A DNA stretch of 64,000 bases from Tubiluchus corallicola (lineage: Eukaryota > Animalia > Priapulida). Where the stretch lies: positions 434,001 to 498,000 of the forward strand of contig JAQGDQ010000147.1 of NCBI GenBank assembly GCA_030141605.1, read 5' to 3'. The position numbers were made by a program, and so were the translations under genes. Below are positions 21,201 through 33,200 of the stretch, piece after piece. The stretch's first letter is position 1. The number at the start of each line of letters is the position of its first letter. The notes under the pieces are model-generated. The model made no database searches. It was not told the DNA's origin and saw nothing but the letters and a program-made list of their open reading frames with translations.

Positions 21201-24200
21201 TTGCTTGATCTTGTAAGATGCTGCTCTTGCAGAAAAATAATTAAATGAGCTGTTACTGCTATTGTTAAAACATAGCGTAATTCTTTGTAATGCATTTAGA
21301 ATCACGATCTTTGATAATATTTCTTAATAATAATTATAGTTTTATTTCAGCCCTTGAAGACTTAGGAGATTCATATGATTCTATAAAAGGTGGAGGCTAT
21401 CTGCTATTCGGACAGTACCAAGAAAGCCTCGGAGGAAGCTTCCGGTCCTTGGAGCGTTTTCATGGAGAAGTAGAAAATATTAGATTTCACCAAACTTATC
21501 TAACTGCTGATAAAATGGGTAATAAGCCACACTCAAGTGCAGATTATGTAAAACTTTTTTATCAACTCTCTCAGTTTCCAAGTTTTAAAAAAATCCTTTA
21601 CCGTAGTCTAGGGAAACCTCATGTTAATTTTTGTCACTCGGTGGTTTTGAGGTCTTCTGGGTCTGATGTTTAAAAAAAGTGAGTGACTTTTTCAAAAAAT
21701 GTTGAAGGCCATTTGAAGGTCAAACAGTCTGAATCAATTTGTGTAAGGATAATTCAAGTCAATTTCTTTTGGTATTGTCACACATAAATATTGCGAAAAT
21801 ATGTTGTATATGTTCTAAAGAGACGTTAAAGAAAAACTGGAACTAATCTTAAACTATAGCTCAAAACAATTTATCCGATTGAAAAGGAACATTACCGTTT
21901 TTTTTCAAGAATGATTTAAGTGAAAGAATTATTACCTCAAAAACGTAATTTGCATTTAAGCAGCTTGTTCTTCATTGTTATCTGCATTTCGGCATTAGCT
22001 AGTTAGCTTTTCGCTTGTGCCTGCATCTTGGAAACTTGTTGCACAAAAGAAAGGTGCTATACCTCTCTTTTCAGTTGTTCAGTTATGACATAGTGCACAC
22101 GTTCGAAAATTCATGCTTGAGCACAGCAGTAAACTTGAAATTTGAATTTTAAACGTAAAATTTGCCGAGTTTTTGTAAATCATACTGAATGTTGTACAGT
22201 AACACCATATTAAGTGTGTATTCCATAATTGCTGTGCTTATGTTCACAAAAAATATATAATTTACAAAAACCTCTATTGAAATTGGTAAATTACTTATGA
22301 CTCAGTTAAAGATAGAAACATTATAACAAATACAATCTGAGAGTTGACTTCAACTAGTAGCTGCTAGATTATTATAGGAGAGACAAAGTTTATTATAAAG
22401 GTCAATGTCACTACAATATCTTTTTTACTGAACTTAGGTACTATTTTTCCTTTATATATTGAAATGGCATTATACCTAGCTGTGGTTAAAATGACTACAG
22501 CAATTGAACACTGCAATGAAAATTAGAGCAAAATAAGTCAAATGTTGAACTTGGTAGAAGAAAAAGATGAAGAATTGTCTTGTGGATAGATGGTACTGTA
22601 CTACATTTAAACTCCAGAACATCAAATGTTTAACATGCAGCAATTGTCGTTTTATCTGTAATAATAAATTACAGCAATAAGTTTTCAATGAAAAAGATAA
22701 GTTTGATAAAGGTACATTACGAAATTAGCTAACGTGATTATCGTCTATAATTGTACAAAAAAATGACAGCTAAATTGTTCTAATAGCATAAAGTAGTTCA
22801 ATAAACATAATTAGACACTTACATGTGGTCTCCCTGAGTTTTGGCACTTATAACTTGCAAGAAAAAACAATAAGAAATCAACAACAACATTCACATCATA
22901 TCAATTGAATTGCATGTCAGGTAATGTCTACCTGGCCAACTACCTGGTCACATGACTGATGACAGTTAAAGGGGCAAGACCAAATTTAATAGGTAGGGAA
23001 ACGTGTATGTGCTTAACACTGCCCCCATAAATGTCTCCACGAGCATTTATCACCTAACAAAAAAGCAATCACACGTTCATCATCTGACCTTCAATGAAAC
23101 ACAACTTGTGTATAGGACGTTTAAGAAACCCCTCTTTGGTTTTCAAGGTGACACTCCTCACCAGACCATCCTTACTGACGTGGGTTTTTACAACACGTCC
23201 AAGCAGCCAACAATTTCTTGGAGTTGTATCCATAATTAGAACAACGTCATCCTCCTTGAGATTCTGTTTGTCTTTGTGCCATTTTGAACGTTGTTGGAGC
23301 ATCGGCAAATACTCTAATTTCCAGCGATTCCAAAATACATTAGAAAGATATTGTATCTGTCGCCACTTTTTCCTATAAACATCTCCTGCAGAAAACTGAC
23401 CCAGTGGAAGTATTGGAGGAGCACTTCTGCCCATCAGAAGGAAGTGGTTAGGTGTTAAAGAATCATAATCATTCGGATCATCAGACGCTGTGGTCAGAGG
23501 TCTTGTATTGACTATGTTCTCGACAATACAGAATAAGGTGCTCAAACCCTCATCATCAAGTACCTGCTCTTGAGCCACTGAGTGCAGAACTTTTTTAACA
23601 CTTTTAATTAGTGCTTCCCAAGCTCCTCCCATATGAGATGCCCGAGGAGGACAAAAGTCCCAATCAATATGTTTCTGAAGTAAGTTTTCCGTGACAACAT
23701 TGGTGTTCCAAGATTCTACAGACTTTTGGAGCTCTTTGTCTGCTCCCAGAAAATTACTTCCACAATCAGACATTAGTTTGTCAGGTTTACCTCTTCTGGA
23801 GCAAAACCTATCTAGTGCTTTTATGAACGAATCAGTTGTCATCGTGAACAAAACTTCAAGATGGATGCTTCTGCTAGCCATACATGTGAAAAGGATGCCG
23901 TAACGTTTTACTTCTGAGCGACCACGTTTTACCATAATTGGACCAAAGCAATCAGTACCCACAGTAGCAAACACTCCAGAGCTTTGCAATCTGTCTACAG
24001 GCAAGTCAGCCATCTTCTGGTGCAGTGGCATTGCCCTATTCAGTCTACATTGTCTGCACTCAGCTAAAAGCTTGCGTACCATGCCACGCATTCCAATAAT
24101 CCAAAACTTCTGGCGGATCAAAGACATTACATGCTGTTTGCCGACATGTCCATGCGTGGTGTGGAAATCTTGGATGACTAAACGTGATAATTTATGTCCT

Positions 24201-30200: not shown

Positions 30201-33200
30201 AATCAACAACAACATTCACATCATATCAATTGAATTGCATGTCAGGTAATGTCTACCTGGCCAACTACCTGGTCACATGACTGATGACAGTTAAAGGGGC
30301 AAGACCAAATTTAATAGGTAGGGAAACGTGTATGTGCTTAACAGGTACAGTTTTTATATCCGTAACCTTAGCACTCAAGGAGGACCACTGATTCATAATC
30401 AAGTACTCAATTAAGGCTAAGCAAACCTAGGAAGCAGGCCAAAGAGACCTGTTCAAGTGAAACATGGCACGAAAAATTCCCGACTAAGTGGTATTTGAAC
30501 ACAGTTGCCAAGTAAAGCACCACACAGTTATGCCGTATCGACATTTGTTAGACCCAAGTATAAGTAAAAGTTCTGAAGTTGCAATTTCAAATGGAGGTAT
30601 TGATATGACTGTCCTTGCTACTCAAGGATTCAGTGATCCAAATGAAAATATGACAAGCATAATCAGAGCAGTGGAGCTAGTAAAAACATATATGTTAAAT
30701 GAAGCACGAAGCCAGTGGGTGCATTTTAAGGCAGTTAAAAGGAGAATCTAAAGGGTGATAAAAAAGTAAAGAGTCGTCAACCCGTTTGCCTACACCTTTT
30801 TAGATGGATTACTGTGACCCACACATTCCAGTAGTCACAACCCTGGGCCTTACACCATTAAGAGTCATGCAACTTTTAGCTGTAATTGTACAACAACGAT
30901 TTCTTCCACTTCAAGACGTTCATGTCACATAGTGAATTTTGTATTATACTAAGTTGCCGGTTCGAGAATTGGCAGATGATTCTGAAATAATGATAAGAGC
31001 TGATTTTGACAGCAAAAGTGAGTACTACTGTACCCGGTATCCGTTCTTGTTATCCTTTTTGGAATGCTGTTTATTCTGGCACATAATTTTGTTAAATCTT
31101 ATTAATGCAAGTAACTCTGCAATTAAGTTTAAGCGCCGAGTCTTCACATAATGGTGTATGCTTCTTTAATAACGATGTGCCAGAGAAACAAGTGCATTAG
31201 ATGTGACTGATAGTATAAACACTAAAATTCATAAATACTGGAAGACAAACTGCAAACAGATAGATAGGCAGACAGGTATACGGAAAAATAGATAGCTGGT
31301 AGCAGATCAAATGAACAAAATGACTGAAATTCAAAGATATCCGAACGACCAACTGCAGTGTGATATTGGCATGTACATACGAGCATGTTCAGCACTGTTG
31401 TTATTCTTGAAATTTCTGTGTATGTTTTTAATTATATGAACAGTTGTTTTTATAGATAATAGTTCTCGTAAATATTGTTCGCTAGTTCTTAATGTGTAGC
31501 ATATCCCGGTTTTTTAAGACTTCGCTCAAAAGGAAACACATCTAAATTTTTAGGTAAATGATGTCGATAATCGCATTGATATGATCTGCAACAAATATCT
31601 CACGTATATGTGCTATTCAACCTATGTTTATTTTTACCAGAGCATTTGATTCGATAGTATATATGTTATATTATGTGTCTAATTACCCCACTGAAAATGT
31701 TTCTAGAATCGTGTTATGAGGTTACAATAGGTTTTACAATACGCAAGATTATCTAGGTATTTCTACTTATAACTAATGCGAGCAAACTCAGCGAAAGTTT
31801 AAAAATATCTACTGTACCTTTTCTCCTTCTTATTACTAATCTATTACAGTATTCTTATTACTAGTCTATTACAGTATCGTTTGACTTTACTAGTCTATTA
31901 CAGAATCGTTTGACTTTACATGTTGCAATTTTTACAGCGTGTTTTCTAGTGGAATTTAAAAAGACTGGTAGTGCTCACTTCAAATAAAAGTGGCTTTTAT
32001 TATAAAGCTAACAAAGTTTTGGAGCTCGTAAGTTTCTCCGCTGTAATAGCACAACTATGCACTGGGACAAAGTCTAAATACTACTAATTTAAAAAATGCA
32101 TGCACAACAAAATCACAAAATCAGGCCTAAATTAACAGAAATGTTAAGTTAACAACAAAAACTTGTTATACATGCATATATTCTAACTTCGGTATTAACT
32201 TCAAAGGCTACTTCGACCCAAATTGCGTTGTAAAGTCTCAGTGGCTATTTCCCGATTTCTTTTCTCATATAGAGCTGATCTAAATTATATATCGTGTGTG
32301 ATTTGTTCGTCCTTCATTGCGAAAATGAACTTGTCTGTCCGCACAAAAGTACGTTTGGCAATTAAAGTGTGGATCCGTGCGTATACATGGCTTTCCGTGA
32401 GGACGCAGTGAAAACGACGAACATGTAAAACAATGATTTGCAAAGTTGCGCTAATGTTCCAAATTTTTTCCGCGCATGTGTGTGAGTGCGGGCGCAGTGA
32501 AAACGCGGCCTGATACGCAAAAAGGCAGTACATAAGTGGTATAAAATTTTTTAAGCTTTATGTTAATTGGGGGTTTTCTTGTATTTTAAATTCTTATTTC
32601 TATCCATAGAAAACAAGGCGTTTTGCGTATTAAAACTAATGCACTCGACGTATTTGTTTTACTGATTTCTTATTTTTATTTGTTATAGGTGAAGAGTATG
32701 CTCTAGGACGGCCTGTGGCTACTCCCTTGCCTACATTTGATCAAAAATTAGCCTGGTGCAAAGGTGTGTTCTTTATATGCATTATATTGAAGTTTTTAGT
32801 TTCTGAATGAACAACACTTTTTATAGATTTGAAAATTTTATTCAGAACATTCTGTTTACTTGCGCATTGTACACATTTGTTGGCGATTATCTATTCTCAT
32901 ATTTTTTCCATATTTTCGTAAGCTCAGAATGTGAGTCAGATCCTTGTGCAAATAATGCAACTTGTATTGACGGAGTGGGTTATTACGAATGCATATGTGC
33001 TCCTGGATTCACTGGAGTCCACTGTGAAAAAGGTACGTAAACAATTCTGGACTGAATTCGACTTGGCCCGGGAATCAAGGGTCAAATCCAGGATAGCATG
33101 GCGGTCCTTAAATTCCGCATTATGATGATCCATTATGTATAGTTGTTCTTTTATGTAATTAATTACTTAACCAATGAAATTCTCTTAATCACAAATGTTA

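Follow-up and report, generated by a model that had tools for sequence, protein, structure and literature searches.

Does a retrotransposon carry a glycogen-priming enzyme as part of its own structural protein, and what could such an enzyme do there? This question is raised by a stretch of 64,000 nucleotides from the priapulid Tubiluchus corallicola (hereafter the window; positions 434,001 to 498,000 of contig JAQGDQ010000147.1, assembly GCA_030141605.1). An intact BEL/Pao retrotransposon of 7,747 bp lies at positions 22597-30343 of the window, in minus-strand orientation, and a single open reading frame (ORF) of 2,197 amino acids (aa) fills its interior. The Gag part of this ORF contains a glycogenin-derived catalytic domain, and the element belongs to a family that is young, mobile, polymorphic and multi-copy. 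We lean somewhat towards the view that a piece of a glycogenin mRNA was captured and then kept by selection as an active self-glucosylating module of Gag.

A glycogenin catalytic domain embedded in Gag

An initial annotation of the window had placed a glycogenin domain at 28334-29107 in the single ORF of the element; it is indeed present and its limits move by a few bases only, to 28328-29110. Pfam Glyco_transf_8 matches aa 189-405 (E 7.5e-13, 49.1 bits against a cut-off of 24.3), structures of mammalian glycogenin-1 (PDB 3v8y, 1ll2 and 3t7m) match over about 260 residues (E 3e-84) and, among GT8 enzymes, the domain is closest to glycogenins. Its identity to the 165 glycogenins (of 167 tried) with which it was compared is 52% on average and 57% at best. 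The insert lies in the N-terminal linker of Gag, between the SAP/coiled-coil part and the capsid core, and the frame runs through it without interruption. It starts at the natural N-terminus of the host protein and stops where the catalytic fold ends. A profile of the C-terminal synthase-binding tail, which matches 107 of 119 host glycogenins, found nothing in the ORF or in the six frames of the window. What was inserted thus comes from the catalytic part of a glycogenin and does not amount to the entire protein; it would be a soluble enzyme of 30 kDa. In glycogenin-1, the last 33 residues bind glycogen synthase and a form devoid of the last 71 residues was used in most structures (PMC8203840).

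The domain keeps the DxD motif (D284-S-D286) as well as K268, N315, D343, D346, Q347, H394 and K400. These include the equivalents of His212, Lys218 and Gln164. Both loop tyrosines, including Y377, the equivalent of the acceptor Tyr195, are retained as well. Besides Asp102 and Tyr195, these residues are the presumed contacts of the metal or of UDP-glucose. Of 35 positions taken as important for ligand binding, catalysis or sequence motifs, or as adjacent to such positions, 29 carry the residue of the host majority, five have one that a part of the 165 hosts shares, and one is unique, the invariant N168 being replaced by lysine (K351). Other changes lie near the acceptor loop and the interface: R376, G378 (in one of the 165 hosts), and Y361 and M384 (in none). 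The roles of Asp102 within the DxD motif (PMC5203857) and of Tyr195 as glucose acceptor (PMC7046021) have been described in glycogenin. The interpretation given in the initial annotation stands in part: the catalytic residues are kept, but the synthase-binding tail is absent, so that the domain by itself would provide a short primer only and no granule. The glycan shield and the tie to oocyte glycogen that it suggested are speculative.

The element had also been described as complete. This holds for the pair of long terminal repeats (LTRs), which differ at position 22654 only (1/422), for the GGTAC target-site duplication (TSD) and for the Pol motifs, but not for the primer-binding site, since no TGG-starting site directly follows the 5′ LTR (29881-29921, minus strand). 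Belpaoviridae have LTRs of 0.2-1.2 kb, a genome of 4.2-10 kb, Gag followed by protease, reverse transcriptase, RNase H and integrase, and a polypurine tract before the 3′ LTR (PMC8742986). The present element resembles them by its size, its 422-bp LTRs, its 5-bp TSD, its one Gag-Pol ORF with the same order of Pol domains and its Pao-specific Pfam families above cut-off. The BEL/Pao polypurine tract (~10 nt before the 3′ LTR) is represented by the candidate GGGGGCAG. Downstream of the 5′ LTR, BEL/Pao elements have a site of 18 nt at which tRNA-Arg or tRNA-Gly acts as primer; here no TGG start directly follows the LTR, and first-strand synthesis may be primed by a tRNA fragment or another RNA. 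The nearest BEL relatives are 42-45% identical from the Gag core through the integrase, and the reverse transcriptase is 57-60% identical to that of BEL-type polyproteins, as measured by sequence similarity. Glyco_transf_8, DUF1759, Peptidase_A17 and DUF5641, which had all been predicted, were found, whereas rve, predicted as well, has no Pfam match in the ORF at E<=0.01.

Both flanks of the insert are ordinary Gag linker, into which the enzyme has been dropped. The SAP domain upstream recurs in P0160, a BEL relative that has no glycogenin, and is therefore ordinary Gag anatomy; aa 1-184 gave no BLAST match, and a BEL N-terminal profile matches aa 38-164 (E 0.002). Downstream, the LNxxAxxF(/W) motif is found in 20 of 51 related BEL polyproteins (P0121-P0171) compared to a mean of 0.92 and a maximum of 5 in shuffled sequences, the pattern having been composed after the sequences had been inspected. 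Related BEL Gag proteins have N-terminal parts of very different lengths, most of them between about 80 and 530 aa, which indicates that the linker tolerates insertions. This tolerance favours an alternative reading, in which a piece of a fast-evolving glycogenin mRNA is recent neutral cargo carried along by a recent burst; the coincidence of both insert boundaries with the edges of the catalytic fold argues against it. The absence of stop or frameshift on either side, which the initial annotation had noted, is correct as an observation. It is no evidence for a function of the domain, given that this frame also encodes Gag and Pol further downstream, and neutral cargo would stay open for this reason alone.

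Copies, junctions and polymorphism

Sequencing contigs from four DNA-type runs (X1-X4), originating from two samples (S1 and S2) of two studies, three of the runs being from one sample, were aligned to positions 21500-31500. These runs contain 52-66% of the sampled words and two further runs next to none; S1 is possibly the sample from which the window comes. A junction was counted as bridged only when a contig continued for at least 31 letters past it. The N-side junction is bridged by X3 record 20 (28570-29332) and X4 record 29 (28837-29949), and the C-side junction by X1 record 5 (28266-29139) and X4 record 28 (27927-28627). X1 record 5 extends about 29 letters beyond the N-side junction and was not counted there. 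No single contig covers the whole element, as would be expected had the assembly fused a BEL element with a retrocopy of glycogenin; however, four contigs from the two samples bridge the junctions at multi-copy depth, which makes such a chimera hardly credible.

The ratio of contig depth between domain and flank reaches 7.4-7.5 in X1 and 4.3-4.5 in X3, and that between element body and flank 4.5-6.6 in X2 and 4.5-6.0 in X4, contig depth being a rough measure that heterozygosity can move about twofold. Several copies of the element bear the glycogenin domain, and its restriction to the copy of the window, named in the initial annotation as a refuting case, is excluded. X3 record 15 is an empty site, which joins 22591 to 30344 with one GGTAC; the insertion is therefore polymorphic. 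The S1 contigs differ from the window at 5/874 and 7/762 bases (about 99% alike) and the S2 contigs at 20/700 and 16/1,115 bases. The variant count, based on 40 of 849 rows, gave 24 differences in the ORF, two of which were dropped (a double change in one codon). Among the 22 that were classed, 12 are synonymous and 10 are not, compared to an expectation of 21-27% synonymous changes (p <=0.007). As none of them is located inside the glycogenin domain, this result concerns the ORF as a whole.

The deepest X4 (S2) contig carries a one-base deletion at 28037, just past the domain, at the start of the Gag core. This deletion and the very high X4 depth over the domain could be understood if the domain served the host, as an extra glycogen primer or in an early domestication, the element being a mere carrier. 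On the other hand, a polymorphic insertion, near-identical LTRs and several copies are typical of selfish mobile elements, the tail that binds synthase is absent, and the kind of data in run X4 is unrecorded. We consider this explanation very improbable.

Three other observations were made on contig depth. First, the summed depth of X4 at 28514-28847 is 51,048, with shoulders of 500-900, compared to 60-80 for the element body and 13 for the flank; the peak covers the most conserved part of the domain, has one adapter loose end at 28703 and looks like capture bait or an amplicon on glycogenin. Second, LTR depth in X1 is 8,000-18,000 versus about 1,000-1,500 for the internal contigs, which suggests many solo LTRs or related families sharing these LTRs, and a family older than its young full-length copies. 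Third, X1 record 3 (27642-28185) has single-copy depth, is about 89% alike to the Gag core and has 691 unaligned bases upstream; it possibly corresponds to an older relative that lacks the glycogenin domain or has a more diverged one.

Constraint, divergence and donor

The domain has the residue of the host majority at 82 of the 90 columns that are conserved in at least 95% of the 165 glycogenins, at 58% and 55% of the columns of the two middle conservation classes, and at only 8 of the 68 most variable columns (12%, compared to an average of 35% for hosts). A Fisher test of 82/90 against 8/68 was not retained as evidence, any glycogenin being expected to show such a gradient. In glycogenin trees, among them a quick tree of 89 rows, the end branch of the domain has 1.11-1.21 changes per column, more than five times the median of 0.19-0.20. 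Together, the column pattern and the long branch reflect a long evolution under constraint, which may have taken place in the donor gene.

Assemblers break contigs at shared 31-mers, and a resident host gene sharing a 31-mer with the domain should thus break the contig; an unbroken 874-bp X1 contig crosses the domain. The surplus of X1 in the most conserved bin is just 36 depth units (1089 versus 1053, single-copy depth being about 141), so that no close host copy is visible. For a neutral divergence of 1-20%, the joint probability of having no shared 31-mer and at most seven extra changes at conserved columns is <=0.0009. All these data speak against neutral cargo. The test assumes a donor residing in the same genome and guessed intron positions, and a horizontal transfer after capture would void it. 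Under these assumptions, a domain near-identical to host mRNA, another refuting case of the initial annotation, is unlikely.

The intronless structure of the domain fits a capture from spliced mRNA, and the domain was likely captured from a spliced animal mRNA and likely retained by selection. As to the donor lineage, G258 (29/29 molluscs versus at most 11% elsewhere) and Q255 are mollusc-like and two other columns are deuterostome-like; approximately unbiased (AU) tests reject no placement (p 0.27 for molluscs, 0.20 for deuterostomes and 0.46 for arthropods).

A possible role in the particle

The initial annotation had put forward a dimerisation surface among the possible uses of the domain. 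Two copies of the domain were modelled together and gave a dimer score of 0.59 versus 0.00 for the best of three controls, with a per-residue model confidence (pLDDT) of at least 83 and at least 94% of contacts shared between runs. The mark for a dimer is reached by 21/30 solved pairs and 0/23 single chains from microbes, and by 17/29 solved pairs and 0/30 single chains from eukaryotes. The domain is thus predicted to form a homodimer. Since glycogenin dimers have already been solved, this score may merely reproduce known structures, and it indicates likeness, not binding. Among the 27 modelled interface residues, 21 are those of the host majority, and the changes sit near the acceptor loop.

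The capture would have occurred during reverse transcription, through a switch of template to a glycogenin mRNA packaged alongside. Because there is a single ORF, the domain would be made one-to-one with Gag. A glycogenin-type dimer is predicted to transfer glucose from UDP-glucose, with Mn2+, to Tyr377 and hence onto Gag. The predicted product is a short chain of 8-14 glucose units, as found on human glycogenin-1 (PMC5203857). Being devoid of the tail, the domain would not recruit glycogen synthase on its own, and further growth of the chain would need host glycogenin or free synthase. As to the benefit, a first and speculative guess is that the dimers, primed with sugar and exposed on the outer region of Gag, would tether assembling particles to the glycogen machinery or stores of the host, by pairing with host glycogenin or by offering a primer, and would thereby concentrate or shelter them; a second guess, speculative as well, is a masking of the particle. 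A bolder proposal, in which every Gag would bring along an active, self-glucosylating glycogenin and the particles would be connected through it with the glycogen metabolism of the host, to be located or sheltered there, is a tentative and rather doubtful one.

Several points weigh against a selected and active self-glucosylating module. The 31-mer test relies on a resident donor, on the assumed breaking of contigs at shared 31-mers and on guessed introns. The long branch may be that of the donor and not result from life in the element, the host glycogenin gene being outside the comparison. At third codon positions, the domain has a GC content of 0.29, the same value as the host EGF gene nearby, compared to 0.40 in the remainder of the ORF (Fisher p 0.0007, and 0.025 at fourfold sites), which fits a not very old capture. 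Departures from conserved columns are more numerous than in 164 of the 165 hosts: six conserved columns (E250, M296, M327, K351, Y361 and I432) have residues present in no host, and one residue is deleted. At the modelled interface, six of 27 residues depart from those of most hosts. No related domain-bearing element was found in other species by protein searches, which leaves a long retention across hosts unsupported. Lastly, the glycogenin-like protein R707 of mimivirus keeps the tyrosine, yet does not self-glucosylate (PMC9614988).

The host-like GC content and the departures at conserved columns would also be expected from neutral cargo, as would a single family whose S1 copies are so similar. 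Set against the position of the boundaries, the unbroken contig with its small surplus of depth and the joint probability given above, this alternative appears improbable. The selected domain might instead not act as a self-glucosylating enzyme. It could be a dimerisation or binding module (cross-linking of Gag, pairing with host glycogenin, binding of UDP-sugar or of glycogen) or could glucosylate another acceptor, as R707 does. The dimer model, the clustering of changes near the acceptor loop and the interface (R376, G378, Y361, M384), the replacement of the invariant N168 and the precedent of R707 are in favour of this alternative. However, none of the metal ligands, of the contacts to the nucleotide sugar or of the loop tyrosines has been lost, although the branch has about 1.1 changes per column. 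A role of the fold alone is unlikely, because surface catalytic residues would then be expected to drift. We consider this second alternative unlikely, albeit one to be taken seriously.

If the self-glucosylating module that we favour is real, a cytoplasmic virus-like particle would glycosylate itself without the secretory pathway. Were the particles moreover linked to host glycogen metabolism, as in the bolder proposal above, no retroelement equipped with a glycosyltransferase would precede this one, and this would represent a new use of the energy stores of the cell by a mobile element. The particles of Belpaoviridae are little known (PMC8742986), and this element provides a handle on the role of the Gag N-terminus. 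It should also be emphasized that a multi-copy intronless look-alike of glycogenin can cause errors in the annotation of genes and in sets of phylogenomic markers for the host.

Other features of the element and its surroundings

The features of the element are collected in Table 1. The three boxes of the nucleocapsid are spaced as CX2CX4HX5C, CX2CX5HX4C and CX4CX3HX4H. Integrase_H2C2 (aa 1823-1876) and DUF5641 (aa 2098-2189) are above the Pfam cut-off, and 49 residues separate D1966 from E2016, giving DD(49)E. The Gag core has no sequence match in PDB. The LNxxAxxF motif presumably resembles the PAM2 motif that binds poly(A)-binding protein (PABP), and no Pfam family matched it; a literature search combining retrotransposon Gag, PAM2 and PABP gave only unrelated papers.

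Table 1. Features of the BEL/Pao element, in the 5′ to 3′ order of the element (positions are those of the window; aa numbers are those of the Gag-Pol ORF)
Feature	Positions	Strand	Description
TSD, right copy GGTAC	30344-30348	.	Repeats the GGTAC of the left copy
5′ LTR	29922-30343	-	422 bp, TG...CA; 421/422 identical to 3′ LTR
5′ leader	29663-29921	-	Five upstream ATGs
Gag-Pol ORF	23069-29662	-	2,197 aa, single frame
SAP domain (aa 16-43)	29534-29617	-	Pfam
Ser-rich then charged coiled-coil-like stretch (~aa 76-122)	29297-29437	-	By eye like related BEL Gag N-termini
Intronless glycogenin catalytic domain (aa 185-445, 261 aa)	28328-29110	-	Pfam, PDB match, alignment
LNxxAxxF motif (aa 460-471)	28250-28285	-	Common to related BEL Gag linkers
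Gag core, DUF1759 (aa 543-685)	27608-28036	-	Pfam
Triple Cys-His nucleocapsid box (aa 771-839)	27146-27352	-	Motif
Aspartic protease, LLDPG (904) to LIGLD (1011)	26618-26953	-	Motifs
Reverse transcriptase YVDD (aa 1327-1330)	25673-25684	-	Motif
Peptidase_A17 region with RNase H DAS motif (aa 1421-1585)	24908-25402	-	Pfam and motif
Integrase: H2C2 finger, D1904, D1966, E2016, DUF5641	23096-24196	-	Pfam and motifs
Polypurine-tract candidate GGGGGCAG	23019-23026	-	Abuts 3′ LTR; short, one pyrimidine
3′ LTR	22597-23018	-	422 bp, TG...CA on minus strand
TSD, left copy GGTAC	22592-22596	.	5 bp; empty site in X3 record 15

In the surroundings, an 8.8-kb open frame of 2,932 codons (36492-45290, plus strand) contains 66 Pfam EGF stretches and internal duplications; inspection by eye further suggests, close to its end, a WAP-like Cys motif and a transmembrane segment. 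Left of the insertion, 21870-22210 is a very high-copy short repeat (summed X1 depth 215,000) in which no long terminal inverted repeat was found. Two overlapping ORFs with CxxC...H knuckle-like motifs (5318-6236, minus strand) look by eye like a decayed ORF1 fragment of a non-LTR element and have only a weak Pfam match, below cut-off. Rfam gave no match in 21500-31500, and no tRNA gene was found in the 64-kb window.

Comparison with known systems

The initial annotation knew of no glycogenin-Gag fusion, and none was found in the protein searches or in the literature searched (Repbase, Dfam, GyDB and subscription journals being outside the search). None of 106 related BEL polyproteins contains PF01501 or matches a glycogenin profile; conversely, a BEL profile matched no member of a set of 240 proteins that bear glycogenin. 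Long proteins with a glycogenin domain (1,208-3,845 aa) showed no retrotransposon Pfam family among 120 of 128 matches. Some very long proteins (P0026, P0034, P0036 from Branchiostoma, P0040 and P0042) carry the domain at their far end, starting at residue 763 to 2779, whereas its usual position is N-terminal. A HMMER search with aa 1-754 against 1.84 billion representatives gave 9,141 matches, the best 150 of which cover the glycogenin part only; none of the 140 new proteins among these best 150 matches any BEL profile. Since a fusion should have ranked at the top, no other one is expected in this set. In the Atlas, aa 1-760 gave no usable match and aa 185-701 only plain glycogenin clusters (0.77-0.78). 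Pattern scans returned 37 metagenome and four viral contig matches, none of them confirmed, and no match in phage records. In a survey of BEL/Pao elements (PMC3118150), "glyco" is absent from the main text.

Compared to BEL/Pao elements, the 261-aa glycogenin domain in Gag is the distinctive feature, as it is lacking in all 106 relatives. In other respects the element matches Sinbad and other Pao-like elements (PMC554778) by its triple Cys-His box, a hallmark of the family, and by LLDPG/LIGLD, YVDD, DAS and DD(49)E; its first two Cys-His boxes are each longer by one spacer residue than the patterns given there. With animal glycogenin-1, the domain shares the whole catalytic domain, the DxD motif, the equivalents of His212 and Tyr195 and the predicted dimer. 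It differs by its lack of tail and introns, its location in a polyprotein, its long branch, the replacement of N168 by K and its altered acceptor loop.

Captured enzymes are known in other LTR elements. Those of bdelloids carry a GDSL esterase, a DEDDy exonuclease or a dUTPase (PMC5408684), and LTR retrotransposon polyproteins with SF1 helicases and DNA methylases have been reported (PMC6338049), the available part of the latter source having no occurrence of "glyco" or "transferase". As in these cases, an enzyme with intact catalytic residues travels in an LTR element. However, the known accessory enzymes act mostly on nucleic acids or lipids, are encoded by ORF3 or Pol and are often swapped among elements, whereas the present cargo is an enzyme of carbohydrate metabolism derived from an ordinary cellular gene and located N-terminal to the capsid. 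With respect to the LTR retrotransposon cargo described in the literature compared, a conserved glycogen-priming enzyme fused to a structural protein would constitute a new class.

A viral parallel comes from mimivirus, whose R707 is a glycogenin-like glucosyltransferase that depends on its DxD motif and on Mn2+/UDP-glucose and was proposed to glycosylate virion proteins (PMC9614988). R707 is encoded by a free-standing gene and is 26% identical to glycogenin-1, whereas the domain described here resembles animal glycogenin about twice as closely and forms one polypeptide with the structural protein.

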